This document shows, in pieces, positions 13,134 through 61,750 of a stretch of DNA of 64,000 nt (position 1 is its first letter; each line of letters starts with the position of its first letter). The translations under genes were made by a program, and so were the position numbers. The notes beneath the pieces are model-generated. The model ran no database searches, was not told the origin of the DNA, and saw only the letters and a list, made by a program, of their open reading frames with translations. This DNA comes from Eledone cirrhosa (Eukaryota): assembly GCA_964016885.1 (NCBI GenBank), contig OZ024744.1, forward strand, positions 97,464,001 to 97,528,000, written 5' to 3'.

Positions 13134-16100
13134 CTGAAAACAAGGAAAAAATAAACTCTTTAAATGTACAAGGCATAAACATAACATACATAGCATTAAA
13201 GCTCCCTAAAATATACTCTTTAAATGTACAAGGCATAAACATAACATACATAGCATTAAAGCTCCCTAAAATAAACTCTTTAAATGTACAAGGCATAAAC
13301 ATAACATACATAGCATTAAAGCTCCCTAAAATAAACTCTTTAAATGTACAAGGCATAAACATAACATACATAGCATTAAAGCTCCCTAAAATAAACTCTT
13401 TAAATGTACAAGGCATAAACATAACATACATAGCATTAAAGCTCCCTAAAATAAACTCTTTAAATGTACAAGGCATAAACATAACATACATAGCATTAAA
13501 GCTCCCTAAAATAAATCCTTTTCTCAAGACTTAGTTTGTAAAATCTGTAAAAAATATATTTATAACTTTAAAATTTTCATGACAAAATTGTCTACATGAT
13601 TGCCATCATTATCATCATCATCATCTTCATCACCATCATTGGTGGATTGGCAGCATCGGTGGAGGGTCGGACGCCATACTTTCCAGCATAGTTACGTCCC
13701 TTTACGATCTGAGTTCAAATCCCGCTGAGGTTGACTTTGCCTTTCATCCTCCTTACGGGGGTCGATAAAATAAAGTACCAGTAATGCACTGGGTAATTGC
13801 TGGCCTTGTGCCTAATGTAGAAACAATTATTATCATCATTATCATTGTTTTACATGTGCTTTCTATATCTGCAGTGATCAGATATGTCACCACAGTCTGA
13901 GTTAGTTCTTATTCAGTGTTTCTTCCCTCCTAGATGGGTTAGAGGCTTATGTGTTTGACATTTTCTACAGATGGATGCTCTTCATAATGCCAACTGCTTT
14001 ACAGAGTGTGCTGGGTGCATTTTATTGTGGAAACAGCATTAGAGGGTGGCTGTCATGTCAGCTCATCATCATCATCAACATCATCATCATTTAACATCTA
14101 TCTTCAATGATGATGATGATGATGATGATGACATGACAACCTCTCTCTAATGCTTGTTCCACAATAAAATGCACCCAGCACACTCTGTAAAGCAGTTGAC
14201 ATTATGAAGAGCATCCATCTGTAGAAAATGTCAAACACATAAGCCTCTAACTACTCTATATTCTCTCCATTCATTTGCCAACCACAGAACATACTTTGCA
14301 TATTTTATTATGGTAATGACACTTGTACTCGGCAAGATTTTCACAACCCAACAACTTGTTCAGCCTTGTTCAGCTAAGGAAATGTGACAGAAAGAGTGAA
14401 GGTAGGGTGATGACAAAAGGAGGACAAGGGTGGAATGGGGAAAGAAGAAAGAATATCATGAGAAAAGTAGATGAGAAAGTAATGGAAAAAAGACAGTGAT
14501 AACATCTTTCAAGGATTCTTCTATAAAGTTTAATAGTTTTCCTAACAAACAATATTGATTTTTTTTTTTTTTAATTCAAAATTCAATATCAGAAACCTTA
14601 TTAACAATTCCAATACGGTCAAATATTTTTTGTGTAAATGATTTCCTCATTAAAACTGTTTTTGCTTTTAAATTCCAGCAAAGATTCAACATGAGTGAAA
14701 TTGAGGATAGATCTTCCAAAATAATTTATCAAGTAAAATATCTATTTAATTTTAAGACATTAATGCTCGTTACATTTTCCACAATCCTGTTCTCACAAAA
14801 AGCATTCATGCTGTCAGTATGGATTATTACATTTATGATAATTTACAGAAATATCCACTAATTTGGATCTAACAATTATGTTTTTATACATCTTTAACAT
14901 ATTTTCTTAACAAAGTATCACAGAAACTTTGTCAAAACACACTTTACTAATGTAGAACACACCTGGATGTAACGCATGCACAAACCAAGCACACAACACA
15001 CAACACACAAAAACAAGAAGGTGTAGGACAGAACAAAGGAGAGACAGACAAAATAAAAACCTAGTCACCGAGGAGGTCGCAAAATGTGTGATGAAAGAGC
15101 TTTGACGATATATAAATAACCTTCCGGTTATCCAACCAACCAACCAACAGTAAAATTATAATAAATTGAAGTGAAAACCAACAGGGGCATGTGTTTTTAT
15201 TGGCAACATGACCCTCCCAAAGTATAACAATACTTTACTAATGATTCCCTGCTAAAACATTGGGCTAATATTTTGTTTGTTTGTTGTTTTTGAAATAACT
15301 TGTATGATGCCTTAGATCAATAGTTCCCAAAATGGGTTTCGCAGAATTCAAGGGTTCCAAAAAGGAGTTTCTAGGGTTCCGTGAAAAAAGGTAGAGAAGA
15401 CCATATAACAGTATTAGACATTGGGGATCTCCCAAAAGTTTCTGAACCAAAAAGGGTTCTGCATTTGAAAATGTTTAGGAAACCCTGCCTTTGATCAATC
15501 AATACCTTGTGAGTGAATTTAATATAGATGGAAACTATATGAGGCCCATCATATATGAAGTGGTGGGGTATATGTGTATGCCAGTCACTTCAAAGGTCAA
15601 CCTACACAACCACTTTACAGTGTGGACTGGGTGTTTTTTGTCGTGATACCTACACCACCACTTTACAGTGTGGACTGGGTGTTTTTTGTCGTGACACCTA
15701 CACAACCACTTTACAGTGTGGGCTGGGTGTTTTTTGTCATGACACCTACACAACCACTTTACAGTGTGGACTGGGTGCTTTTTGTCGTGACACTAACACA
15801 ACCACTTTACAGTGTGGACTGGGTGCTTTTTGTCGTGACACCTACACAATCACTTTACAGTGTGGACTGGGTGCTTTTTGTCATGACACCTACACAACCA
15901 CTTTACAGTGTGGACTGGGTGTTTTTTGTCATGACACCTACACAACCACTTTACAGTGTGGAATGGGTGCTTTTTGTCATGACACCTACACAACCACTTT
16001 ACAGTGTGGACTGGGTGTTTTTTGTCATGACACCTACACAACCACTTTACAGTGTGGACTGGGTACTGTTTGTCGTGACACCAACACAACCACTTTACAG

Positions 16101-19100
16101 TGTGGACTGGGTGCTGTTTGTCATGACACCTACACCACCACTTTACAGTGTGGACTGGGTGCTGTTTGTCATGACACCTACACCACCACTTTACAGTGTG
16201 GACTGGGTACTGTTTGTCATGACACCTACACCACCACTTTACAGTGTGGACTGGGTGCTGTTTGTCATGACACCTACACCACCACTTTACAGTGTGGACT
16301 GGGTGCTTTTTGTCGTGACACCTACACAACCACTTTACAGTGTGTACTGGGTGCTTTTTGTCGTGACACCTACACCACCACTTTACAGTGTGGACTGGGT
16401 GCTTTTTGTCATGACACCTACACAACCACTTTACAGTGTGGACTGGGTACTGTTTGTCGTGACACCTACACAACCACTTTACAGTGTGGACTGGGTGCTT
16501 TTTGTCGTGACACCTACACAACCACTTTACAGTGTGGACTGGGTGCTTTTTGTCATGACACCTACACAACCACTTTACAGTGTGGACTGGGTACTGTTTG
16601 TCGTGACACCTACACAACCACTTTACAGTGTGGACTGGGTGCTTTTTGTCGTGACACCTACACAACCACTTTACAGTGTGGACTGGGTGCTTTTTGTCAT
16701 GACACCTACACAACCACTTTACAGTGTGGACTGGGTACTGTTTGTCATGTCACCTACACAACCACTTTACAGTGTGGACTGGGTGCTTTTTGTCGTGACA
16801 CCTACACAACCACTTTACAGTGTGGACTGGGTGCAATTTAGCAGAGAACTAATGTTTGTTGGATGAGAGGTGTTAAATTAAACTAGAAAATAAATAAAGG
16901 CACTGCATGTTGCTGTAATATTTTCTATAATATAATTGTTTCTACTTTTAGCACAAGGTCAGCAATTTGGGTGGGAAGAGGAAATTAATTATATTGTCAC
17001 CCCCTTCCACCAGTAGTTGATTGGCTGTGGGGCATCCAGTACATGTGACCCCATTTTCTCATAATACAGAGAGATGAGGAGGGCAAGAGAGATGGGGGAG
17101 ATGACAGTGGGCATTCAGCACTTCTGTGTTTAGGCCTGGTGTGCAGCATTAGTTGTCTGTAAAGAAGCAAAAGTGGCATGATTTTCCTCGTTCTTAGCAT
17201 CTTTTACACAAGTTTTAGTTTTATTGACCCAGAAGGATTAAAAGCAAAGTTGACCATGGCATGATTTGAACTTAGAAAGTGAAGCGACAGAGCAGATACT
17301 TCTGATCATTAATCCGACACATTATGAGGGTTGGCTGAAAAGTTCATAAGTTGACTATGAAGGAGTGATGCTAGAGCTATAAAATCTTGCATGCAATGCA
17401 TTAATTCCAACTCTTCTTATTAATAACTGTATTGTTTCATTCCAGGGACTATGTTGAAAAATAAACCTCATTTGGTCATTCCATGAGAGTATCTTGGTCA
17501 GCCTATGAAGGAGTGATGCTAGAGCTGTGAAATCTTGCATGCATTAATTCCAACTCTTCTTATTAATAACTACATTGTTTCTTTCCAGAGACTATGTTGA
17601 AAAATAAACCTCATTTGGTCATTCCATGAGAATATCTTGGTCAGCCTATAAAATTTTCAGCTGACCCTCTTAATGACTCTGCCAACCTACAGCTTTAATA
17701 TTTTGTATAATTTAATTCCTTTTTTATCCGAGTTCAAAACAAAGTTCTCTTCTATCTCACTGTCTTTGCCTCTACAATACTGATAGGCTACATTATAAGA
17801 ACGCTGTCCGTCTGTCTGTCCATCCCTCCATCCATTACGTTCACTATATATATATAGAGAGAGAGGGAGAGCGCCAAGCAAGAGATGTATATATATCAAG
17901 AAAGAAAAAGGGACACTGTGTCTTTTTGAGGTGACAGAAAGAAGTAGACAGACAGAAAGTTATGACGTCGCCCTCATCAATATAGAGAGAGGGGGAGAGA
18001 GAGCCAAGAAAGAGATATATGTACATGTTTAGAGAGAGAGAGAGAGAGAGATAGTGTGTGTGTGTGTGTGTGAAAGAGGGAGAAGACAATGTCACTCTCA
18101 TCTAGTATATATTAAAGTAGTTATAAACTTTGATTTGATTGTAAACATACAGTTGGGTTATAGAGCATTGGGAAATTTTAAATATGAAATCTGAAAATAC
18201 AGTCACCCCAATGCAGGCATCTCTGTCCACTTTTATTTCATTTCCAGGGGTACTTTACTGGTTTGTTCAACTATTATTTATTATAGAGTATACTGAATTG
18301 CAATCAGGCTCAAATTGGAATAACTAACTATTACAACTCACATGTGCAAACATAGAATGAGTTTAAAATTGTCCTCAATGTCTTAATATTAAGGTGTATG
18401 CTTTTGAAAACTGTTCAAGATAATGATTTCTAATTTAAGCACAAGGCCAGCAATTTGAGGGGAAGGAAAATCGATTATATTAACCTCAGTATTTGACTGG
18501 TAAATTATTTTATCGACCTTAGAAGGATGAAAGGCAAAATTGACCTGGGCATTATTTGAACTTGATGTAAAGCTAGCTAGAACAAATACTACAAAGCATT
18601 TTAACTGATATTCTAACAACTTTGTTAATCCACCATCTCTCTGTTTAAATAATAATCAATAATCAATAAAACAGTTAGAGTTACTCACGTCGGGGACAAG
18701 AATCAGTTATAGTTGTGATGCCATACATTTTTCCATGACCTCCAATTGGTGTACTTAAAGGTTCACTTGGTTTATTGGAATTCCACTTTATATTAGATAT
18801 GGTAGACCTAAGAAAAGATATTTAAAACAAAACAACATTTAATCAATTGTGAAAAGAAATCTTTCTTTAACAACATAATGTACATAGAAGATGTTAATAG
18901 CATCTGATGATACCGACATGTCCTGTCAAAAGTTATAATCACTGAAGCTGAATGAATGAGAAGCAGCTTCTTTATGATGTAATCACCCCCAAAAAATCAC
19001 ACAAAAAATATTTAATGTTCTATTAAAGTAAGAGATAATATATTCTAGTGAAGCACCCTTTATATTTGTCACGTCTCTTTAGATTTCTGTGCAAAATAAG

Positions 19101-22100: not shown

Positions 22101-25100
22101 ATCTCATAGATTCAATATTATGTGAGATAATTATGTGAAATAGAGTGTTTATTGTGAAAATACAATAGTAAATATAGAGTAATGTAAATGCTAAAGGGTT
22201 AAATATTGTATTAGTTACATCATATTTATGAAATTTCAAACATTAGCTTTCAATTTTGTTTCAATTAGCTTTTTGTTTAGGAATTTCAGTTGCATTGGGT
22301 AAATTGTTTTTATATTAGGATTGTATTTATGTATTATGTTACATGTAAAACCAACATGGTGGAAACAAACACTGTTTACTCAGCTGTAGAAATGAGTTAT
22401 GATAGGACTCACACACATCCAATGAGATATACCTTGGAGGAGGCCAGCTAAACCTGCATAGGTGTGAGCTGTCACACACACATATATATGAGGTTATAGT
22501 GTAATAGAGCACATGGCTAAGTGGTTAGAGCATTGGGCTTGCAATTGAAAGGTTGTGAGTTCAATTCTCGAACCAGGTGATGTGTTGTTTCCTTGAGCAA
22601 GACACTTTATTTCACTTTATTGCTCCAGTTTACTCGGCTGTAGAAATGAGTTATGATAGGACTGGGATCCCTATCATTAAATTACCCAAGACACCTCCAA
22701 CAAGATATACCTTGGAGGAGGCCAGTTAAACCTACATAGGTGTGAGATGTCACACACACAAACAAACACTGTGATTTTAAAAAAAGAGGAAACAGGAACC
22801 TACCTTTGTCACCCCAACATAATTGGCTGGTTTGAAGATCTAAGGTAATTGCATTAGGTAATCTTAACTCATCGTGGACAAACAACTGTCTATCAGAGCC
22901 ATCCATATTAGCCTTTTCAATTCTGGGATTATTATGTACCCAGTCTACCCAATAAAACACCCTGAAAGAAAAAGATATATATACTAAATAAGTATAAGTG
23001 TGTTTAAATTTACATATACACAGAAAGTGGAGCAGAACATTGTAAAAACAAGAGTGTGTAATTTTAAAGTATTGATAGATAAATGTTTCTACTTTAGGCA
23101 CAAGGCCAGCAATTACCCAGTGCATTACTGGTACTTTATTTTATCGACCCCGTAAGGATGAAAGGCAAAGTTAACCTCGGCGGGATTTGAACTCAGAATG
23201 GAAAGGGCTGTAACTCTTTGCTGCAAAGCATGGCGTCTGACCCTCTACCAATATAGATAATAAATAGTAATGGTGTCACAACAACACTTAGTCCACTGTT
23301 CACTCTGTAAGATGATAATATTGGTACCAGAACAAAAGGTCCACCCAAGTCATGCAGATACCACAAAAACAAAAGCACCCAGTCCACCCTGTAAGGAGGT
23401 TATGTTTCTGCCTCAACATTGAAAGCACCCTCTCCACTCTGTAAGTTGATAGTACTGGTGCCACACAACAAATGCACCCAGTCTAGCTTGTAAGATGGTC
23501 GTGCTGGTGCCATATGAATAAAAGCACCCAATCTGAACCGTGTAAGAAGGTCATACTGATGCCTCAACAAGAAAAGCACACAGTCCATCCAGTAAGGTGG
23601 TCATGTTTGTGCCTCAACAACAATAGCACCCAGTCCACTATGGAATGTGATAGTATTGGTACCAGAACAAAAGCACCCAGTCCACCCTGTAAGGTGGTCA
23701 TGCTTCTTCCACAATAACAAAAGCACCCAAACAACAATGCCATACAAACAATAGATTAGGCCCATCATGGATTTTGCTAGTCCTGCCTATGTTCCATGTT
23801 ATCATCCTCATTCCTTTTAATCCATTTCGTCCTTGCTTGTATGTGTTGGATGGGGATTTTTCCCCAGCAAAGATTCCCTCCATTCATTGTGCTCCTTTGT
23901 CATCTATCTGTGAGGTTGAGTGTTTTAAGATCCTTCCTCACCACTTCAGCCTAAGTCATCCTTGGTCTTCTCTTCTACAGCTTCCTACCACTGGCATTTC
24001 TCTACAGTTTTCTATCCTTTAGGATCCTCTTCACCCAACAATCATCATCCATACACATCACATAGCCTTTCCAGCACAGTTGAAAGTCTGTCTTGAGCTC
24101 AGAGGTTCACCAGGCCAGTACTTATCCTGGTTTCCATGGCATGAAGCGAATGTGAGTATAAAACTCACTCTGGAGAGGACACCAGTTCATCTCCATGTCT
24201 CCTGGTTTCTGTGGCATGAAGCACCTGAGTGTACAAGACTCCCTCGTGGACAGGATGCCTGTCCATTGCAGGGTTAAACCCCCAGCTATTGCTGGTACTC
24301 ATTTTCTGCTGAGTAGACCAGAGCAACATGAAATGAAGTGTTTTGCTCAAGAACACAACACACAACCACCCAGTCAAGGAATCAAACCCACAACATTATG
24401 ATTGTGTCCAACACCCTTACCACTAGGCCACACACCTCTACTTAGTATACCGGAGCAACATGAAATAAAGTGTTTTGCTCAAGAACACAACACAAACCTA
24501 GTCCAGGAATTGAACCCACAACATTATGATCATAAGTCCAACAACCTTACCACTAAAACACATGTCCCCACTACCAGCACAGACTGTTATACATTAAAAA
24601 AAAAACTTACCCTCGGATTGGATCCACGACAATTCCCCTTGGGTTGCTTATTTTTGTATTAAATAGAGTTTTACGTTGAGTACCATCTAATTTGGTTAAT
24701 TCTATTGTCTTTTTCCTGGAATCAGTCCAGTACATATTCCTTGATATCCAGTCAATGGCAATGCCTTCAGATTTCACATCTAAAATAAGAAAATTAAGTG
24801 TTATTCCTAATTATTACCTTTGTTTTTTTAAGTAAAATTTTTAAGTAAAATTTTCTTCTCCAAAATGAGAGATCACAGCTCTCATACCATGGACATGTGG
24901 TTAGAATGTCTCAGTAAAGAACTGCTGGACAGATTTGTAGCTCGGAGATGAGAGAGTCACTCCAAGTAGAGCCACTACTTCTCCGAATTGAAAGATCACA
25001 GCTCTAATACTATGGACATGTGGTTAGAATGTCTCAGTAAAGAACTGCTGGACAGATTTGTAGCTCGGAGATGAGAGAGTCACTCCAAGTAGAGCCACTA

Positions 25101-41368: not shown

Positions 41369-43066
41369 AATTTTAAAATAATTTATACACCATTCTTGGT
41401 ATATAGATGCATATACACACCAGATGCACATATACACCATTGTTGGTGTGTATGTGGCAATATCTGATTCCTATATGAAACTGCTCTTTTGACAAGTTTG
41501 CAAAAAATAAAAACGATACTTTTGAAAAATATACATTTGTGGCCACTGCACCCTCTCACAGCCACCTAATACCCTCAGTGATTCCAACCCTATTTCCAGA
41601 AAGACCTGCCTACATGCAAATTGTAAATAATATATAATAAATAAAATCGTTAATTTATATATAATAAATTATATAATATATACTATGTATAAATAAACAT
41701 TATATATGTTTTTATTTTACAATGTTTATATATAATTGCCTATGTACAAAGCGAAACATTCAGTCAGTAGGCACCTCTTAACCAAATATACACCCCTATC
41801 CTCCCACTCCCACCAACACCACCCTCTCTCTGTAAAGTTGGTACCACAACATCCAGTCCAAATAAATGAGATAATTGTTTCTACTTTTAGGCACAAGGCC
41901 AGCAATTAACCAGTACATTACTGGTACTTTATTTTATCGACCCCCCGTAAGGATGAAAGGCAAAGTTAACCTCGGCGGGATTTGAACTCAGACTGTAAAG
42001 GGACGTAACTATGCTGGAAAGCATGGTGTCTGACGCTCTACCGATTCTGCCAATCTACCACCCTAAAAGTAAATGAGATAATGAGATCAAGATTGTGTAG
42101 GTGTCATGACAAAAACACACAGTCCACGCTGTAATGTGGTTGTGTAGGTAACACGGTAAAAAGACTCCCAGTCAAGACTGTAAATGTGGTTGGTGTTAGG
42201 AAGGGCATCCAGCCAGATAGTCCTATATGAGCGAGACACGGTCACCCGACAAACCTTGCCTCAACTTGGGACAACTCCTGTCTATCCCATGCTAGCGTGG
42301 AAGATGGACGTTAAACGATGATGATGATGATGATGTTTCTACTTTAGGCACAAGGCCAGCAATTATCCAGTGTATTACTGGGGCTTTATTTTATTGACCC
42401 CGTAAGGATGAAAGGCAAAGTTAACCTCGGCGGGATTTGAACTCAGATCGTAAAGGGAGGTAACTATGCTGGAAAGCATGGCGTCTGACCCTCTACCGAT
42501 TCTGCCAATCCACATCTACTAATATATAATTGTTTCTACTTTTGGCACAAGGCCAGCAATTATTCATTATATTACTGGTGCTTTATTTTATCGACCCCCG
42601 TAAGGATGAAAGGCAAAGTTAACCTCGGCAGGATTTGAACTCAGACCATAAAGGGACATAACTCTATGCTGCAAAGCATGGCATCCAACCTTCAACAAAT
42701 ACAGCCAATCCACCACCCTTTATTTATATATATGTATCATTTGATATTTAATATACTATTATATCATCTCTACCACTCCCCCCAGTGCCCACTTTGAGAA
42801 CTTCTGAAGTAGTGTGTGTGTGTGACAGCTCACACCTATGCAGCTTTAGCTGGCCTCCTCCGAGATATATCTCGTTGGAGGTGTCTTGGGTAATTTAATG
42901 ATAGGGACCCCAGTCCCTATCATCTCATTTCTACAGCCGAGTAAACTGGAGCAATGTGAAATAAAGTGTCTTGCTCAAGGAAACAACACATCACCCAGTC
43001 TGAGAATTGAACTCACAACCTTTCGATTGCAAGGCCAATGCTCTAACCACTAAGCCATGTGCCTAC

Positions 43067-43101
<35 letters not shown>

Positions 43102-46100
43102 TATATACATATCTTTTTCTTTCAGGGTGTTTTATTGGGTAGACTGGGTACATAATAATCCCAGAATTGAAAAGGCTAATATGGATGGCTCTGATAGACA
43201 GTTGTTTGTCCACGATGAGTTAAGATTACCTAATGCAATTACCTTAGATCTTCAAACCAACCAATTATGTTGGGGTGACAAAGGTAGGTTCCTGTTTTCT
43301 CTTTTTTTAAAATCACAGTGTTTGTTTGTGTGTGTGACATCTCACACCTATGTAGGTTTAACTGGCCTCCTCCAAGGTATATCTTGTTGGAGGTGTCTTG
43401 GGTAATTTAATGATAGGGATCCCAGTCCTATCATAACTCATTTCTACAGCCGAGTAAACTGGAGCAATAAAGTGAAATAAAGTGTCTTGCTCAAGGAAGC
43501 AACACATCACCCAGTCCTAGAATTGAACTCACAACCTTTCGATTGCAAGCCCAATGCTCTAACCGCTAAGCCATGCGCCTTCTGAAGTAGAGCAAGACAA
43601 AATAAAAGATTGTGGTCTTCTTACGAATAGGATCGGTGCATGTCATTCCATCTCCACTGAATCCAGAGTCACATTCACATTTATATTTGGCTTCCTCTTG
43701 AGAATAAACACAAACAGCATTTTCACCACAGTTGTTTACTTCATTGCAGCTGTACGCTAAAAACAGAGCATAATAATTTCATAGTTAATATTTATAAAAG
43801 AAAACAATTTGTGGTTTCAGCAATCAAGGTAACAAAGATGGAAATGGAAAGTAAGTAAGTAAATCAGACCTGAAAACTCTCCCCATCCAATAGGGAGATC
43901 TCCCACCCACTTTGGGGTGGGTGAGAGATGTCTTCTCTTGTGAAAATGGGTATAGATTTTATTATGTAAAATCTCTCCAATTTGCCTCATTTTTCCCCAA
44001 TTTTGGGACACTTTTTTTTCATGGTATTCCCCGTTTGGGTTTTTAGAGGATGGCAGGTCTGGTAAATAATTAAACGTTTTGATTTATGTAATTCTAGTCT
44101 AATCCAAAGTCTGTCTCAAGCCCGGGCAGTGCTTATCCCTTTTGTTGTGGTATGAAGCGACAGAGAATACATGACTCACCCTGGACAGGATGTCAGTCCA
44201 TCACAGGGGTAAAGTTTATCCCAAGACCAGAGGCTTATCCCAGTTTTGTAGTATGAAGTGACTGAGAATACAAGGTTCTCCCCGCACCTGGACAGGAATG
44301 CCAGTCCATCACAGGGTTAAACCCCCAGCTATTGCAGGACTGGAGCAACATCAAATAAAGTGTCTTGCTCAAGGACACATTGAGCCGCCTGGAATCGAAC
44401 TCACAACGTTACGATTGTAAGTCGAATGCCCTAACCACTAGTAATACCAGTATAAAAAAAAACTGTAAAAAACAAAAGAAGTTTAGAATGTGGCGAGCAA
44501 GGTTTGTAATTGAAATAGTGACAGCAGCTTCACCAAAACATTTTGACTAAATAATTGTTTCTACTTTTGGCACAAGGCCAGCAATTATCCCAGTACATTA
44601 CTGGTACTTTATTTTATCAACCCCGTAAGGATGAATGACAAAGTTAACCTCGACGGGATTTGAACTCAGACCATAAAGGGCCATAACTCTATGCTGAAAA
44701 GCATGGCGTCTGACGCTCTACCGATACTGCCAATCTACCGCCTTACTGTCAATAATAATACGTCTGCCAATAGCTGGGGAAATCGAGAATATAAACAATT
44801 GAAATATATCCGCAGCAAAACTTTCCACGGAGAAATTGATTCATGTACTAACATTTTTTTCACTGAACGATATAAATCGATAATTGTTTCTACTTTTGGC
44901 ACAAGGCCAGCAATTATCCCAGTACATTACTGGTACTTTATTTTATCAACCCCCGTAAGGATGAAAGGTAAAGTTAACCTCGGCGGGATTTCAACTCAGA
45001 CTGTTAAAGGGACGTAACTATGCTGGAAAGTATGGCGTCCGACTGCCAATCCACCGCCCTGGCTAAATAATATAGTCTTATAACAGTTTCTGATTTATGC
45101 AAAAGGCCAACAATTTTGTGGGAGGGGAAAATTGATTAAATCAACCCCAGTGTGTTACTGGTACTTTAGTTTATTGACCCCATAAAGATGAAAGGCAAAG
45201 CTAACCTCGACAGGATTTGAACTTAGAATGTAAAGATCCATAATACTATGCCACAAACATGTTTTTTGATGATCTACCAATACTGCCAATCCACCGCCCT
45301 ATAGTCTAATAACAAGGCATATAAACCCACTGAATATTCAGTGGGTTTATACGCCCCATTATTAGACTATATTATTTAGTCAAAATAACTATGCTTTCCA
45401 GCATAGTTACGTCCCTTTACGATCTGAGTTCAAATCCCGCCGAGGTTGACTTTGCCTTTCATCCTTACGGGGTCGATAAAATAAAGTACCAGTAATGCAC
45501 TGGGTAATTGCTGGCCTTGTGCCTAAAGTAGAAACAATTATTTAGTCAAAATATTACGGTGAAGCTTCTATTTCGATTTCAGTTCTATACTGTATAAACA
45601 TATGTTTAAGGAGAATTTAATATTGTTGAATTGGAAGTTCAGTTGTCGGATAAGTTCTGAGGCGTTTGCAGAGATTATGGGTACTGTTCCCTCTGAAGTA
45701 ATCAATTAAAAGAACATATTCATTTAGTACTAAATATAGCTACCTAATATCAACTATAGTCATAGCAACAATATCAACTACTAGCATTAAATCCCAGCGT
45801 TGCTCGGGGTCAGTAAGTTACCAAAGTTAGGTTGCACCACCCATTTTATGGCAGCACTTTTTTGTCTGCCAGGCACTGGGTGAAGGAATTGCAGACCTGG
45901 ACTGCCGAAACAGGAGCTGCGCCAGCAGTGACAATTGTAGTTTCACCTATGGATATTATCTCTGTGCAAAGAAGTGTTGAAATTTATTGTTTCACACTAC
46001 TTGCGCAACACGCGCGTAGACGATGCCAGCCGAACAACAGAGCTGCGATGGAGTTGTTCTGCATGGTTGTCTAATGTGTGTTTTCTAAATTTAAGACAGT

Positions 46101-52100: not shown

Positions 52101-55100
52101 AAAATCAAGGGAGACAACCTAGAAAAATTACCGATTTTCCAACACTCCTCATATTATTTGTGACCCAAGAGTAATTAAAAACGGTCGATATTATTTCTAT
52201 ATGCTGGATTGGCAGTATCGGTAGAGGGTCGGATGCCATGCTTTCCAGCATAGTTACGTCCCTTTATGATCTGAGTTCAAATCCCGCCGAGGTTGACTTT
52301 GCCTTTCATCCTTACGGGATAATAAAATAAAGTACCAGTAATGCACTGGGTAATTGCTGGCCTTGTGCCTAAAGTAGAAACAATTATTTCTATATTTTGT
52401 TATACAAATAATGATTTCTAATTTAGGCACAAGGTCAGCAATTTGAGGAAAGGGATGAGTCAGTTATATCGACCCTAGTACATAGCTGGTGCTTTATTCT
52501 ATTGACTTCGGAAAGATGAATGGCAATGTTGATTTAAATAGGATTTGAACTCCAAATGTAAAACGGCCAGAAATGTTGTTATATACCACCAAGATCATCA
52601 GTATGGACTTCATCATGTCATTAATAAATGTGCTAAACAAACCTACTTATGTTCATTGAACCAATGAGAAAGGTCTACTAAAAATAGCAGCCAAATCTTC
52701 CTCAAATTATATTCCTACCGTCTTAAAAAGAAATATCACATTAGGTAATGAAATCCTGATATCCTATGTCTGAAAATAAAACAGGATAGTCATGGCTTGT
52801 ATGCCTTTGATTATAGATCTGCTTAGTTTGAACTGACCTGAAGCTAAACAGTTACAACTATTGCATATCAGTATTAAATAATAAAACAGGTGTAGTTTCA
52901 TATCCAGATAATTGTCTTCTATTAATCCTTTAGCATTTAAACCGGTCATATCCAGCCAGAATTTTCTCACCTTTTTCTGTTCAAACTGGCTGTAACCAGC
53001 TATTCATACTGATATTAAGGTATTGTTCTCAAAATAAATAATATCAAAATATCATAGATTCGATATTATGTGAGATAAAGTGTTTACCATCAAAATCCAA
53101 TAGTTTTTATAGAGTAATGTAAATGCTAAAGGTTTAAACTACTATAAAAACATTTCAACATAAATATAAAGCCAAAGAGAGAACCGCTACAGGGTAACTA
53201 CTCAAAATGGTAGAAATAGCAGCCAAATTTCACTCAAAGCACACACTACCAAAATGAATAAAAAAAGTGCCTATTATATAATAGGCATAGTTAAAATGCT
53301 ATCTATATACTACTAAAACTCTGTGATTACGTCTTGTCTGTAATATAATACAGCCAAAAGGGTGCATAATGGGAAAATACTTTGAAAGGAAGTTGACCCT
53401 GAAATGGGAATACAAATGGAATAAAACACGTCTCACGTAAATCGAAGCACGGGTTCCCGAGATATGGGTTTTTTCCGGGTACCATTATAAATAGAGAGAG
53501 GGAAAGATAGAGAGAAAGAGAAAGAGATAATGGTGGTGAGAGAATAGATTGAAAGAGAGACATAGAGAGAGAGAGACAGAGAGAGAGGGAGAGAGAGAGA
53601 GAAGGAGACAGAGAAGGAGGCAGAGAAGGAAAATGGAAGAGAAGGAGAGAGAAAGCTGTAAAAATTATTTTTAAGTGAACATATTTTTTTTTTTTATAGT
53701 TTTTTTAAGTGAACGTAACCCAACGGGTCACGGGAAGTTTATCATAGAGTTGACCCATGCTTAATCAACAACAACAATAACAATCTCAAGAATATAAAAT
53801 AATCAAGTTTTACATACCTCGCCTCTTGCATTTGCCTCCTTCTGATTCATATCCATTATTACAACGACAAATATATGATCCCGCAGTGTTGAAACATTGT
53901 TCATTTTCACCACAAGCATTTTTGGAGCACTCATCAACATCTGATATCAAAGAAAACATCATTTCAATACTGTATCAACATTATTTCAATATTATATCAA
54001 TATTATATCAATATTATTTCAATATTATTTCAATATTATTTCAATACTCATGGAGGCACATGGTTTAGTGGTTAGAGCATTGGCCTTGCAATCGAAAGGC
54101 TGTGAGTTCAATTCTCAGACTGGGTGATGTGTTGTTTCCTTGAGCAAGACACTTTATTCCACATTGCTCCAGTTTACTCAGCTGTAGAAATGAGATGATA
54201 GGGACTAGGGTCCATATTATTCCACTGCAAAGTGGTCGTGGAGGTGCCATGGCAAAAAAGCACCCAGCACTCACTGTAAAGTGGTCGTGGAGGTGCCATG
54301 ACAAAAAAGCACCCAACACTCACTGCAAAGTGGTCGTGGAGGTGCCATGGCAAAAAAGCACCCAGCACTCACTGCAAAGTGGTCGTGGAGGTGCCATGAC
54401 AAAAAAGCACCCAACACTCACTGTAAAGTGGTTGTAGAGGTGCCATGACAAAAAAGCACCCAGCACTCACTGTAAAGTGGTTGTAGAGGTGCCATGGCAA
54501 AAAAGCACCCAGCACTCACTGTAAAGTGGTTGTAGAGGTGCCATGACAAAAAAGCACCCAACACTCACTGCAAAGTGGTCGTGGAGGTGCCATGGCAAAA
54601 AAGCACCCAGCACTCACTGCAAAGTGGTCGTGGAGGTGCCATGGCAAAAAAGCACCCAGCACTCACTGTAAAGTGGTTGTAGAGGTGCCATGGCAAAAAA
54701 GCACCCAGCACTCACTGTAAAGTGGTTGTAGAGGTGCCATGGCAAAAAAGCACCCAGCACTCACTGTAAAGTGGTTGTAGAGGTGCCATGGCAAAAAAGC
54801 ACCCAGCACTCACTGCAAAGTGGTCGTGGAGGTGCCATGACAAAAAAAGCACCCAACACTCACTGTAAAGTGGTTGTAGAGGTGCCATGGCAAAAAAGCA
54901 CCCAGCACTCACTGTAAAGTGGTTGTAGAGGTGCCATGGCAAAAAAGCACCCAGCACTCACTGTAAAGTGGTTGTAGAGGTGCCACAGCAAAAAAGCACC
55001 CAGCACTCACTGTAAAGTGGTTGTAGAGGTGCCATGGCAAAAAAGCACCCAGCACTCACTGTAAAGTGGTTGTAGAGGTGCCATGGCAAAAAAGCACCCA

Positions 55101-58100
55101 GCACTCACTGTAAAGTGGTCGTGGAGGTGCCACAGTAAAAAAGCACCCAGCACTCACTGTAAAGTGGTTGTAGAGGTGCCATGACAAAAAAGCACCCAGC
55201 ACTCACTGTAAAGTGGTTGTAGAGGTGCCATGGCAAAAAAGCACCCAGTACTCACTGTAAAGTGGTCGTGGAGGTGCCACAGAAAAAAAGCACCCAGCAC
55301 TCACTGTAAAGTGGTTGTGGAGGTGCCACAGCAAAAAAGCACCCAGCACTCACTGTAAAGTGGTCGTGGAGGCGCCACAGAAAAAAGCACCCAGCACTCA
55401 CTGTAAATGAGGTTGGTGTTAGGAAGGGCATCCAGCTGTAGAAATCAAGCCAGAATCAGTTCCCGTCCCACCCTTGCAAGCAGGGAAAAAGTGGACGTAA
55501 AATGAAACGATGATGATGAATGATGACTCTATCAATATTATTTCAATACTGTATCAATATTATTTCAGTATTATTTCAATATCATAGGCGGTGGATTGGC
55601 AGTATCGGTAGAGGGTCGGATGCCATGCTTTCCAGCATAGTTACGTCCCTTAACGATCTGAGTTCAAATCCCGCTGAGGTTGACTTTGCCTTTCATCCTT
55701 ACGGGGTCGATAAAATAAAGTACCAGTAATGCACTGGGTAATTGCTGGCCTTGTGCCAAAAAGTAGAAACAATTATTTCAATATCATCATCATCATCATC
55801 ATCATCATCCTTTTACGTCTGCTTTTCCCTGCTTGCAAGGGTGGGACTGTATCAATATTATTTCAATACTGTATCAATATCATTTCAATACTGTATCAAT
55901 ATCATTTCAATACTGTATCAATATCATTTCAATACTGTATCAATATTATTTCAATACTGTATCAATATCATTTCAATACTGTATCAATATCATTTCAATA
56001 TTGTATCAATATTATTTCAATACTGTATCAATATCATTTCAATACTGTATCAATATTATTTCAATACTGTATCAATATTATTTCAATACTGTATCAATAT
56101 CATTTCAATATTGTATCAATATTATTTCAATACTGTATCAATATCATTTCAATATTGCATCAATATTATTTCAATACTGTATCAATATTATTTCAATATC
56201 GTATTAATATTATCATTTTTTTTTTTATATATTAAAATAATTATTTCTACTTTTCATACAGGGCCAGCAATTACCCCAGTGAATTACTGGTACTTTATTT
56301 TATCGACCCCGTAAGGATGAAAGGCAAAGTTGACCTCGGCGGGATTTTAACTCAGATCTTAAAGGGCTGTAACTCTATGCTGCAAAGCATGGCGTCCAAC
56401 TCTCTACCGATACTGCCAATCCACGGCCCTATTCAATATTATATTAATATTATCACATTGATACTGCCCTGTATAGTTTCAGATAAAATTATATTCAATT
56501 ATCCCATTGGTATCATTAAAGTGAAATAGAGCAAGCTGAGCTGCACATATTCTAACTATCAGATCAAGCAAACTTGGAAGCTGTAGACACAATTGTCTAT
56601 TGCAGTAGGCAGATTCTCTAATTCTATGAAGGTAGGCTGAAGATTTCATAGGCTGACTATGAAGGAGTGAAGCTAGAGCTGTGAAATCTTGCATGCATTA
56701 ATTTCAACCCTTTTTATTAATAACTGTATTGGTTCTTTTCAGGGACTATGTTGAAAAATAAACCTCATTTGGTCATTCCATGAGAGTATCTTGGTCAGAC
56801 TATGAAAGAGTGATGCCAGGGCTGTGAAATCTTGTGTGCAATAATTTGAACTCTTTTTATTAATAACTGCATTGTTTCTTTCTAACAAGGACTATGTTGA
56901 AAAATAAACTTCATTTGGTCATTCCACGAGAGTATCTTGGTCAGCCTATGAACTTTTCAGCTTATGATCTTTTCGGCTGACCCTTGTATATCTGTATCCA
57001 GTGCCAGTTGGTGGTCAATGGATCTTTTACTATGAGTAGTTTTCTATAATAATAAATGAGGCACTACTTTACTTCTCTAACAGTGACCAATGAACCTTAG
57101 TCTTTGTTGGTAACTTGCCAAACAAGGACACATTATTTAAACTTTGCCTTTCATCCTTACGGGGTCGATAAAATAAAGTACCAGTAATACACTGGGTATT
57201 TGCTGGCCTTGTGTCTAAAGTAGAAACAATTATTTACAATAGGCGGTGGATTGGCAGTATCGGTAGAGGGTTGGACCCCATGCTTTGACACATAGAGTTA
57301 CGGCCCTTGCCATTCTGAGTTCAAATCCCGCCAAGGTTAACTCTGCCTTTCATCCTGACGGGGTCAATAAAATAAAGTACCAGTAATGCACTGGTGTAAT
57401 TGCTGGCTTTCTGCCAAAAGTAGAAACAATTATTTACAATAGGCAGAACCAGGACTATAGAGAGACAAGTCCATCTGGGTTTGTGGTCTTTTTTCACTGA
57501 ATTAAGGGTTCAAACCAGGTACTTAGTGGTCTACTGCAATGTAGAAATATTGGATGATTGTAGTTTTTACCCTAAGTAGCTTTCCATAGCAATAATTGAT
57601 GCATTACCATGTGATTGCTTCGCTGAAAGTGACCAATGAAATTTAATCATCTTTGGCTCAACATAGTTGTTAAAAGATTCAAAATAAACTATATAACTAT
57701 TTGCTATCTTGCTAATAATGTTAACAATAATCCCATATTAAGCAGATTATATACAGGGTGAGTCAATGCATTTTTATTGCAAGGTTCACAGGTAACTTTT
57801 TGAACATCTGCTTCAAATTATATTGAGGAACAGGGTCAGCTTTTTTGAACAATTACTTTAATTATATATTTTTAACTAGTTTTCATCATCATCATCATCC
57901 TAATCATTTAATGTCCATCTTCCACGCTAGCATAGGTTAGACGGGAGTTGTGCCACTTGAGCCAAGGCTGGTTGGGTGACCGTGTCTCGCTCATATAGGA
58001 CTAAAGAAAGGTTGCCAGAAGTTGTTTGATGTATTTATAATTTTGTACTGTACGACCAGAATTTTGGTGGATGCCCTATCTAATGCCAACTACATTTACA

Positions 58101-58771: not shown

Positions 58772-61750
58772 GTGATGAAGAAGATGATGATGATGATGAT
58801 GACGATGATGATGACGATGATGATGATGATGAATATAAATCTTGAACTCTGCCCAGTTACTTGTGACTCTCCCTGTATAGTGGATTCTATTTTAATGGAT
58901 CAAATTCTTACCCTTTCTCTTCCAACTTCAAATCACAAATATATGTCACAAATATATGTCACAAATATATGTCACAAATATATGTCACAAATATATGTCA
59001 CAAATATATGTCACAAATATATGTCACAAATATATGTCACAAATATATGTCACAAACTGACATAGTAACAATATTACAGCGTAACATAGACACATAATTG
59101 TTTCTACTTTGGGCACAAGGCCAGCAATTACCCCAGTGTATTACTGGTACTTTATTTTATCGACCCCTCCCCGTAAGGATGAAAGGCAAAGTTAACCTCG
59201 GCGGGATTTGAACTCAGAATGGCAAGGGCCGTAACTCTATACGTCAAAGCATGGCGTCCGACCCTCTAACGATACTGCCAATCCACCGCCCGTATAACAT
59301 AGACACATAATGAAATGTATATAAATCCACAGAAATATATACATATGTGTGAATGAAGTAATTCCATCGGAAAAGTCCAGGAAAAAAGAGTGCTCTATGT
59401 AAGCAACAGAGCTTAATTATTATTATTATGTAATAAACAACATAAGGCAATTATTCCATTTACCAGTGGTTTCTTAAAAGCAAAAGGTTTTGCTTTCAAT
59501 CCTCAGAATGAAAAATCCTGGTTTGTTTATTGAATATGGATTCTAAAAACAAAAATGCAATCTATATGAAAGTGAGGCTGGAAAAGGGAGAAGGAAAGGA
59601 AAAATAAAATAAAATAAAACTACACATGCAAACACACACAAAAAAAAAAAAAAAAAAAAAAAAAAAACCCAAGTGTGTGTTAGTATGCTTTTGGGTTTTT
59701 TTTTTTTTTTTTTTTTTTTTTTTGTGTGTGTTTGCATGTGTAGTTTTATTTTATTTTATTTTTCCTTTCCTTCTCCCTTTTCCAGCCTCACTTTCATATA
59801 GATTGCATTTTTGTTTTTAGAATCCATATTCAATAAACAAACCAGGATTTTTCATTCTGAGGATTGAAAGCAAAACCTTTTGCTTTTAAGAAACCACTGG
59901 TAAATGGAATAATTGCCTTATGTTGTTTATTACATAATAATAATAAGAAATATATACATACACAGAAAGACACAGTCACAGAGAAAAAAAAAAATTTGCA
60001 TTGAAATTTCAATTAGAATGAGACTCACCTGTACACAAGTAATTTACCATTTCATATCCAGTATTACATACACATTTGTAGCCATTTCTCAAAGTCCTAC
60101 ATTGGGAGTTCAATCCGCAGACAATGTCTTTACAGTTAGCGCTACCTGAAAATAGATTAAAGAAATACAATGGAACCTTGGTTCTTGAACTTAATTTATT
60201 CCTGAAAGCCATTCGTCACCTGAAATATTCATAAACTGAAACTATTTTTCCCATACAAAATGTTGAAAGAGAAATACAGAGAGAGAGAAAGAGAGATTGT
60301 GTGTGAAAGACAGATAAATATCACAATAGTAACTAACTACACAGGAGTTGACATTTTCCTGCTAATTCTCCCAGTTTGTTGCCAACTGTTATTGCTGACA
60401 TGTTTTATGATCAGAACATTTTTTCATGAACAGATTGTTTCTACTTTAGGCACAAGGCCAGCAATTACCCAGTGCATTACTGGTACTTTATTTTATCGAC
60501 CCCGTAAGGATGAAAGGCAAAGTCAACCTCGGCGGGATTTCTAGAAGAAATTGTCCTGAAGAGAGATGGGATCTGATAGGTCTAAATCCCCAAATCACTA
60601 TGGTGGCATCCTAAAACTCCCTGAAGTTAAAGCTCCCATTGACAAAGTGTCACATAGAAGTATGACTACTAATTGTCTCAGGTCAAACAATTACGTGAAT
60701 AAAAATATATATATATCATATTTCCTGGTGCCATGAGAGGTGCTCATGAACTAAGGTTCCACTGTATCGCTTGGGTCATTTAATTGCCCAGTATATGGTC
60801 AATACTGTATTTTCCAGCTTTGAAGATGCTACTTTTTTCCTAAAATAAGGCTAAAAAAATCTACCATGCATCCTGGAGGCCGAAGGTTGTTTATTATTTT
60901 TTTTTTTTATTTGTTGTTGTCAAAATTAGGGTGCGTCCTCGAGGACGAAATGTCTTTGGCACCAGGAAATATGATATATATATATTTTTATTCACGTAAT
61001 TGTTTGACCTGAGACAATTAGTAGTCATACTTCTATGTGACACTTTGTCAATAGGAGCTTTAACTTCAGGGAGTTTTTAGGATGCCACCATAGTGATTTG
61101 GGGATTTAGACCTATCAGATCCCATCTTTCTTCAGGACAATTTCTTCTAGAGAGAGAGAGTAAGAGAATGAGAGAGTGAGAGAATGAGAGAGTAAGAAAG
61201 AGAGAAAGAGTATGAGAGAAAGAATGTGAAAGAAAGAGTGAGAGAGTTAGAAAGAGAGAAAGTGTGAGAGAGTAGTTATCACAGTTTCTGTGGTGTGAAG
61301 CAACTAAGAGAACAAAACTGACCAGTCCATCACAGAGTTAAAACCCCCAGCTATTACTGGTAATCATTTTCAGCTGAGTATACAGGAGCAATGTAAAATG
61401 AAGTGTTTTGCACGAGAACGCAACACACAACTCAGTCCAGGAATCAAACTCATGACAGTATGATCATAAGTCCAACACCCAGGCAGATTTAAGTTAAATC
61501 TGCCTTCCAAACATGTCAACTCCAAATGATCCTTTAAATCTCTCCTAGGGATAATGGGTTTTTAAACCTGAAAATATTTGAGATCATTAAATTTGCTAAG
61601 GTAAGGTTCTTTTGTTATCTTAACAATTTAATTTTCTTTTTAATGCATTGTTTGGTTTTCAAAATTATTTAAATTTGTGTTTCCTATTCAACACTGCTTC
61701 AAGTAAGCTACAAAACTATATATATATATACATATATATATATGTGTATA

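Follow-up and report, generated by a model that had tools for sequence, protein, structure and literature searches.

A young, probably neutral antisense copy of a YWTD exon inside a SINE cassette of a nidogen-like gene in Eledone cirrhosa

An intron of a nidogen-like gene in Eledone cirrhosa holds an antisense copy of a coding exon from further downstream in the same gene, and the cassette that carries it is real, young and probably neutral. On balance we think it likely that homology-primed repair of a DNA break added about 370–395 bp to an older unit of two SINEs, where they have stayed as a neutral passenger. Coordinates refer to the window, the whole 64-kb stretch of DNA that was analysed, in which the features are as follows.

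22363..22772, plus strand: source two-SINE unit, with a 13-bp direct repeat at 22363 and 22760
22509..22759, plus strand: source SINE, antisense to the gene, in the intron downstream of the YWTD exon
22804..22961, minus strand: the nidogen-like gene's true YWTD exon (LDL-receptor class B), 158 nt
42801..42812, unstranded: tail-end copy of the 12-bp direct repeat (TSD), whose motif, CTTCTGAAGTAG, has just two occurrences in the window, at 42801 and 43579
42813..43067, minus strand: SINE2, a full-length tRNA-derived SINE with a (CA)n tail, old
43068..43103, unstranded: (TC)n(TA)n microsatellite spacer, absent at the source
43104..43327, plus strand: copied unique flank, 224 nt, 3 differences from the source
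43126..43283, plus strand: antisense copy of the 158-nt YWTD exon, frame still open
43328..43498, minus strand: SINE1 body and tail, 0/171 differences from the source SINE, with the source's derived alleles
43499..43578, minus strand: SINE1 head, apparently from another SINE copy, 9/80 differences from the source and 6/80 from SINE2
43579..43590, unstranded: head-end copy of the 12-bp direct repeat, its last 4 nt overlapping the family 5' leader
43625..43756, minus strand: EGF exon that precedes the cassette in the gene, with its donor GT at 43624

The real YWTD exon (22961–22804) has AG/GT borders and lies in the open spliced frame of the nidogen-like gene; on its downstream side, the source's 13-bp repeat encloses a 5'-truncated SINE (22374–22481), a short spacer and a full SINE. 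The cassette sits in an intron of 3,484 nt that ends 17,180 nt before the YWTD exon is transcribed. An earlier note on this DNA had placed it about 45 nt from the donor of the EGF exon, which is right for the SINE start, but the outer edge of the TSD lies 33 nt from that donor. The second SINE and the 12-bp TSD described there are both present; the last four nucleotides of the repeat on the SINE-head side also belong to the family's own 5' leader (GAAGG, at 36 of 80 C1 loci by a strict motif count), so that the true TSD may span 8–12 bp.

The cassette SINEs are tRNA-derived SINEs, with a tRNA-like head, a dispersed high copy number, a tail and a TSD. The head of SINE2 scores 29.9 bits against the Rfam tRNA model RF00005 (gathering threshold 29) and that of SINE1 22.3 bits, while a 27-nt pattern from the SINE body has 1,302 exact matches in the genome. 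Tails are (CA)n, and a flanking repeat of at least 7 nt accompanies 43 of the 80 C1 copies under a loose rule. No tRNA gene was found within the 64-kb window.

Self-BLAST aligned 43104–43578 with the reverse complement of 22509–22983 over 475 bp, with 12 mismatches and no gaps (463/475 identical), which bears out the reverse-complement copy reported earlier; together with the exon borders, the alignment also confirms that the whole 158-nt exon and both splice sites lie inside it. Besides the ends of the introns and the two splice sites, the copied flank takes in the 13-bp TSD that belongs to the source SINE itself, and the exon copy has a single coding difference (Ser in the source, Asn in the copy). 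The non-repeat part of the source, 22770–22990, has exactly two matches in the 3.0-Gb genome, both within the window. An assembly artefact, which a repeat-rich region might invite, is hardly credible, as a misjoin would not give 12-bp repeats at both ends, a distinct head, three substitutions of the copy's own and a spacer that the source lacks.

The 12 mismatches are clustered: nine fall in the 80 bp of the SINE head, none in the 171 bp of the SINE body and three in the 224 bp of flank (9/80 vs 3/395, Fisher p=1.0e-5; head vs body, p=2.5e-5), and nine head differences at the copied tract's own rate have a Poisson p of 1.8e-8. When alleles are scored against the majority base of each column in 117 family copies, all derived alleles from offset 108 onwards are common to source and copy, whereas of the nine in the head none is. 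The SINE1 head has none of the source's five derived head alleles, and the two heads carry 5/80 and 4/80 derived bases of their own. To judge by these alleles, the copied SINE is a mosaic in which a foreign, older head is fused to the source's body and flank, with the template switch placed between 43498 and 43472 (offsets 81–107, 27 identical bases past position 80). The last difference between source and copy is at offset 471 of 475. We lean towards the view that only the last 370–395 bp of the 475-bp match stem from the nidogen exon region.

Four of the 12 differences read A in the source and G in the copy, as would the marks of an edited RNA template; three of these four lie in the head, at sites where it is the source that has changed and the copy that keeps the majority base of the family, which disposes of that reading. 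Nor is the SINE1 head a duplicate of the SINE2 head, which six differences in 80 rule out; the single derived base that these heads have in common is a change at a CpG site, present in 9 of 117 copies. The G at offset 128 is a weak sign of kinship between SINE2 and the source, having 129 exact genome matches and occurring in 6 of 117 copies. Of the SINE variants that had been called private to source and copy, a 3-nt insertion is so (0/117 other copies), but a 2-nt insertion recurs in the truncated SINE beside the source and, elsewhere on this chromosome, at three more insertion sites.

One SINE allele is confined to 4.7 Mb of one chromosome, chromosome 28. An introgressed block was considered as the cause of this local allele and rejected, an abundant repeat being undifferentiated there (154 copies vs 23, with 0.012 as the lowest p in 229 tests); a second family was confounded by a mixture of subfamilies and a third had too few copies. 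Family-wide local spreading was not seen either, in a low-power test on 69 of the 80 C1 copies that could be aligned: there was no excess of shared rare alleles at <1 or <3 Mb (permutation p 0.80 and 0.82).

The SINE-driven capture proposed in the earlier note, taken as one TSD-bounded retrotransposition, is not supported, given this mosaic and the ages of its parts. Divergence is 0.76% in the copied tract vs a family median of 3.3% from the majority (SINE2 is off the column majority at 9 of 240 positions), and the other parts look older than that tract by a factor of about ten. The best match to SINE2, among 40 scored of 904 candidates in one haploid assembly, is 96% identical. For the SINE1 head, none of three other exact pattern matches has both of the other derived bases, and the closest among 111 copies differs at 3/80. 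Since neither the head nor SINE2 has a near-identical donor among these copies, the TSD likely comes from an older two-SINE unit.

Like the product of a SINE 3' transduction, the cassette has an element and its flank within one TSD; the copied element does not match the source from its 5' end, and the flank ends with neither terminator nor tail. A rather unlikely variant holds that an old 3' transduction with a template jump built the whole unit within its TSD in the family's active period and that late gene conversion between the inverted copies spared the head. This would account for the canonical 5' end abutting the TSD, for the single TSD round all parts and for the similar numbers of derived bases proper to each head, as if the two had split early. 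Against it, the conversion tract must reach the very end of the homology, and transcription must have read past two T4 runs to an end that has no terminator. The mosaic would look no different had the capture been old and the conversion recent, and this counts against the repair model.

The most reasonable explanation is that the copy was written by repair. An older unit of a head-donor SINE, a microsatellite and SINE2, suggested by the divergence values, would have lain inside the TSD. With a break within the first SINE or behind it, the end on the head side would have entered the ~90%-identical SINE that lies in cis at a distance of 20 kb, at some point among the 27 identical bases; this switch zone is visible in the sequence, and the repair pathway is proposed. 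Synthesis would then have run through the body and tail of the source SINE, its TSD and the exon as far as the (TA)n tract that follows, an order that the copy retains, and the extended end would have rejoined the microsatellite before SINE2 through a few bases of TA microhomology; the copied tract does stop in the spacer with a TATAT overlap. As donor and acceptor SINEs are oppositely oriented, the exon copy is antisense. One junction in homology, the other at microhomology and a donor in cis at 20 kb, all seen here, are features of homology-primed templated insertion (SDSA/MMEJ), and in C. elegans the end-joining of extended SDSA ends yields duplications (PMC8654963). The repair route needs no transcript of the flank. 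Pol III read-through would cross T4 runs at both 22775 and 22914, yet no T run marks where the copy stops; its flank ends at a TA tract, the next T4 being at 23062.

Several observations weigh against repair. All parts stand in SINE-sense order within one TSD, as in template-switch retro-chimeras; the donor search covered one haploid assembly and 40 scored candidates; and the older two-SINE unit is a reconstruction in a family in which same-direction pairs are rare (none at 80 C1 copies, in a stretch of ~1 kb each, although the source itself is such a pair). That order and the single TSD, as in a LINE template-switch fusion, favour a recent single retrotransposition, in which a LINE reverse transcriptase passed from SINE2 RNA to the nidogen intron and on to a third SINE RNA. 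Tripartite chimeras with 14–16-bp direct repeats are described from fungus and mouse (PMC2104539). We judge this origin improbable, and equally so the route it would take, a jump at the TA tract to the intron (as RNA or DNA) with a homology switch finishing the head; for it to be recent, SINE2 and the head would each need a donor of ~99% identity, and none was found in the one assembly.

A second exon-carrying cassette was not found among the 80 C1 copies or in an 864-kb neighbourhood, which is a small sample. In favour of repair, the neighbourhood does hold another stretch of unique DNA that has been duplicated locally into two copies, 300 kb away, with the copies 2.8 kb apart, a microhomology join, an end in (CT)n and no TSD seen. 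The screen gave 30 pairs of low copy number in the region, of which eight were viewed and three checked genome-wide; two of these three proved to be repeat families and one a true duplication, a tally that tells against repair, and the idea that local duplications ending in microsatellites are common here was dropped.

By computation, copy and exon could pair in the pre-mRNA along the full length of the tract. The exon-masking duplex of ~470 bp proposed earlier holds as to antisense geometry, cover of the splice sites and computed stability (-873 kcal/mol, vs self-folds of -117 and -125, with six G.U wobbles and six true mismatches, none of the latter in the exon), but the case for function is weak, with the arms 20,120 nt and eight exons apart. 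The copy must stay unspliced over 17 kb more of transcription, and so pairing is probably rare. A regulatory role is unlikely given the 20,000-base gap.

The pairing is nevertheless the gene's strongest exon-covering one, which speaks against neutrality: it is the only exon-overlapping pair among 126 inverted pairs (at least 100 bp, 85%) in 12997–62600, and the exon part has no nearer complementary partner. As in an editing complementary sequence (ECS), an intronic complement of an exon lies in the same pre-mRNA, and the arms lie in flanking introns as for a circular RNA, one 2,964 nt ahead of exon 40140 and the other 1,628 nt past exon 24611, here a predicted circle of 1,132 nt. We regard it as doubtful that the copy acts as a cis-antisense element, in which late splicing of the intron would permit the duplex and clustered ADAR editing, skipping or an exon 40140–24611 circle would lower the allele's output of intact nidogen. 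Octopus has the highest editing rate among 22 species (bioRxiv 2020.01.19.911685), and a new long dsRNA born of duplication may be hyper-edited at once (PMC4053966). On the other side stand the length of the loop, vs human Alu editing that falls off on a scale of ~800 bp, which may not fit cephalopods, and is weaker across different introns and exons (PMC4066801), a studied range within 5 kb for Alu loop-out skipping (PMC13019027) and the rarity of robust recoding outside neurons in squid (PMC9068888). Editing or skipping would damage the protein: 35 of the 49 exon adenosines would recode if edited, and skipping would shift the frame and bring an early stop in the next exon, 123 nt short of its end. 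The copy is also too young for visible constraint. Distinctly improbable, finally, is the whole chain in which one-step SINE-to-SINE repair, 20-kb pairing of nascent RNA and hyper-editing or skipping amount to the birth of an ECS that recurs at opposed exon-flanking SINEs.

Any effect of the insertion might instead be ordinary exonisation of the gene-sense SINE1, from an acceptor at 43458 to a donor at 43347, which we rate as very improbable. The candidate poison exon has 111 nt and an in-frame stop and begins 166 nt from the upstream donor. Its sites score 8.0 and 6.1, within the leave-one-out ranges of the gene's own, on matrices that are crude, having only 13 acceptors and 12 donors of this gene behind them. 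Such splice motifs sit unused in most intronic SINEs.

As it stands, the cassette appears to be a single young duplication with only a putative antisense role. Its mosaic warns that an element, its flank and a TSD are no proof of retrotransposon transduction. The locus is also a natural experiment, in which an animal rich in ADAR has a young, near-perfect exon complement whose distance is long and known: an effect in carriers would show that RNA can pair over a long range and that new cis-antisense control can arise in one step, and no effect would set a bound on distance. Were the ECS-birth reading true, it would concern the coleoid lineage, with the heaviest A-to-I recoding, and carriers and non-carriers may still be comparable.

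No equivalent case was found in the largely open-access literature searched. In 3' transduction of the L1/SVA type, an element and its downstream unique flank lie within a TSD. The cassette is similar in having an element and an exon-bearing unique flank within a TSD, and differs in its foreign head, a flank that ends without poly(A) or terminator, the second SINE that follows and the landing in cis 20 kb off. OK and OR1 are further tRNA-derived SINEs of octopus. By description the cassette SINEs resemble these, OR2 and the Ceph-SINEs in their tRNA-like head, body, simple-repeat tail and TSDs, and occur in an octopod genome; OR2, likewise a tRNA-derived SINE of octopus, and the squid Ceph-SINEs are named in PMC4758252.

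SDSA-templated duplications as described in PMC8654963 share homology and microhomology junctions and a tract of a few hundred bp, but have a sister chromatid as template and a tandem product, whereas the cassette was probably templated by an inverted SINE 20 kb off and the product is an inverted exon copy. The LINE template-switch chimeras of PMC2104539 likewise have three same-sense parts and one short direct repeat; the parts of the cassette look unequal in age, and its middle is unspliced flank of the same gene, not an abundant RNA. ECSs and inverted-Alu duplexes (PMC4053966, PMC4066801, PMC13019027) also involve an intronic complement within one pre-mRNA, but known ECSs are imperfect and conserved and Alu effects fade within a few kb, while the complement here, known from its sequence, is near-perfect, very young and 20 kb away. 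The closest molluscan likeness is the Lymnaea antiNOS-2 of PMC3537157, an antisense RNA born of an inverted duplicate of its target gene; it is a separate, trans-acting transcript with experimental support, whereas the Eledone copy is intronic, would act in cis and is described at the level of sequence.

Self-BLAST of the window bore out the antisense match of SINE, intron and exon that the earlier note had proposed: positions 43104-43578 (the copy) are the reverse complement of 22509-22983 (the source), with 463 of 475 positions identical and no gaps, and a search of the 3.0-Gb assembly with the non-repeat part of the matched region hit source and copy and no other site. The 12-bp direct repeat said to enclose the unit was likewise recovered, at 42801 and 43579 and nowhere else in the window. 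That the host gene is a nidogen also held: a search with the peptide of the YWTD exon retrieved nidogen-1-like proteins from Octopus bimaculoides and Argonauta, the Pfam domains are NIDO, G2F, EGF and LDL-receptor B, and splicing 13 of the 17 exons placed by tblastn on the minus strand (43756 to 12997) gave one open frame. The protein hits point to an octopod-like host. The copy, antisense to this gene, occupies the 3,484-nt intron that follows exon 43756-43625, eight exons upstream of its genuine counterpart. In SINE direction, the cassette at 42801-43590 reads as follows.

12-bp repeat, SINE1, the source's own 13-bp TSD
intron (53 nt in all), reversed exon, intron (22 nt)
(TC)n(TA)n spacer, absent at the source, then SINE2, (CA)n and 12-bp repeat

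The SINE heads match the Rfam tRNA model, and the family comprises at least 1,302 copies with a median divergence of 3.3% from the column majority (116 copies). At the source (22363-22772), a single 13-bp direct repeat encloses two SINEs, one truncated and one full, in contrast to 80 SINE copies on contig C1, none of which has a same-direction family neighbour in the ~1-kb stretch examined. Tails of the family can expand: in copy L005 (1-1500) the last ~26 nt and the (CA)n tail form a tandem array of >1.4 kb, and shorter tail duplications occur in L014, L017, L021 and L036. Mutually inverted 48/49-bp tandem arrays at window 15600-16842 and 54223-55415, 80% alike, are made of the tail unit of a sister subfamily with the first 170 nt in common.

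The copy has a mosaic make-up. Of the 12 positions at which it departs from the source, nine lie within the first 80 nt and three in the 224-nt flank, while the 171 nt of SINE in between are free of differences, a clustering in the head with Fisher p=1.0e-5 (Poisson 1.8e-8). When SINE alleles were polarised against 117 family copies, the head carried five derived bases in the source and four in the copy, none in common, whereas from offset 108 (counted from the SINE1 head end) both have a 3-nt insertion, a 2-nt insertion, five substitutions and a CpG-site change. The supposedly private SINE variants proved so in part: the 3-nt insertion is found in 0 of the 117 others, and the 2-nt insertion occurs at further insertion sites on C28, the contig of the window. 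An unshared head followed by shared alleles indicates that the SINE1 head came from another SINE copy, and the alignment places the switch to source sequence within offsets 81-107. The source-derived tract, 368-395 bp, diverges by 0.76%. The closest other copy to SINE2 is 96% identical (best of 40 scored among 904 candidates), and the three other exact matches to the SINE1 head pattern all lack its other two derived bases. On the simplest reading, head and SINE2 would have aged in place with the TSD theirs, and the tract would be roughly ten times younger than both.

As the origin of the tract we lean towards break repair via the inverted SINE 20 kb away. A broken end would invade that SINE, synthesis would run through the exon up to the (TA)n tract, and the end would be rejoined by microhomology; repair from an inverted SINE explains the antisense orientation of the exon. 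Worms provide a documented case of extended SDSA ends being closed by end-joining (PMC8654963). Repair would also do without a flank transcript; such an RNA would need to cross two T4 runs, and the copy ends at no T run. An old transduction followed by recent gene conversion is unlikely, and a recent tripartite template-switch retro-chimera more doubtful still; chimeras of such a kind have been described (PMC2104539). One further two-copy local duplication of unique DNA lies 300 kb away, 130 bp long and joined by microhomology to a broken tandem-array end, terminating in (CT)n; its copies are 2.8 kb apart.

C28 97805304-97805464, first copy (L196)
C28 97808244-97808403, second copy (L197)

Two more candidates proved to be ordinary repeats, so such duplications are not established as common. 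A separate fragment with a 160-bp local duplicate (L192, C28 97764659-97765309) resembles, we presume, small-subunit rRNA.

The 2-nt-insertion allele has five exact matches, all on C28; at up to 2 mismatches there are seven, namely six C28 SINE copies, spanning 93.06-97.80 Mb and thus within 4.7 Mb of one chromosome, and one unrelated C3 fragment.

C28 93.06 Mb, carrier L057
C28 97.29 Mb, carrier L058
C28 97.49 Mb, window 22374-22759, both SINEs of the source unit
C28 97.51 Mb, window 43328-43578, the cassette
C28 97.80 Mb, carrier L067

With source pair and cassette merged these make four insertion sites with different flanks, and 5 of the 9 SINE copies in the 864 kb around the window carry the allele. 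In a family with no fewer than 1,302 dispersed members, such confinement is very unlikely to be chance (<1e-4, a rough post hoc estimate). No general neighbour effect appeared among C1 SINE copies and no block signal in an abundant repeat. Candidate explanations of the cluster are local conversion, local hopping and block ancestry; the first, acting between SINEs, would sit well with the main repair model, and local retrotransposition would be more unusual.

The near-perfect duplex envisaged over exon and splice sites stands as computed pairing: copy and source together reach -873 kcal/mol versus -117 and -125 when each arm folds by itself, with 6 wobbles and 6 mismatches; from offset 282 to the end, a stretch covering the exon and both splice sites, there are wobbles but no mismatches. 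The interval 12997-62600 holds 126 inverted pairs (≥100 bp, ≥85%), and this is the sole one to overlap an exon. The arms are 20,120 nt apart, and the host intron ends 17,180 nt from the real exon. In human Alus, editing is reported to drop exponentially with distance on a ~800-bp scale and to be weaker across gene segments (PMC4066801), a 22-species survey sought pairing within 2 kb (bioRxiv 2020.01.19.911685), known ECSs are described as imperfect and conserved (PMC4053966), and squid recoding as mostly neural (PMC9068888). The two distances and these benchmarks make activity of the cassette less likely; since the benchmarks do not come from octopus nascent RNA, long-range pairing of copy and exon keeps a low probability. 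Its effect would be damage rather than tuning, because 35 of the 49 adenosines in the YWTD exon recode if edited and skipping the 158-nt exon leads to a stop in the next exon, 123 nt short of its end. A more ordinary effect may come from SINE1, in the form of a cryptic poison exon of 111 nt: both gene-sense SINEs have splice-like acceptor and donor pairs (43458-43348 and 42945-42836, minus strand), and both candidate exons carry in-frame stops.

Elsewhere in the window, a 530-bp fold-back at 59417-59946 (97.7% self-complementary, A28/T28 near its centre) comes to within ~90 nt of the exon 60146-60033 donor and is, by distance, a far better putative ADAR substrate than the cassette. A 195-bp inverted pair in a nidogen intron (60540-60733 and 60957-61151, 98.5% identical, 224 nt apart) is probably a small fold-back transposon.

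The cassette is real and open to test, but it is a single, young structure and probably inactive. No report of the same exact arrangement was found in the literature searched, whose coverage excluded most subscription papers. Its elements, SINE, templated duplication and inverted intronic complement, are each already known; in Lymnaea, an inverted gene duplicate is reported to give rise to an antisense RNA that acts in trans (PMC3537157).
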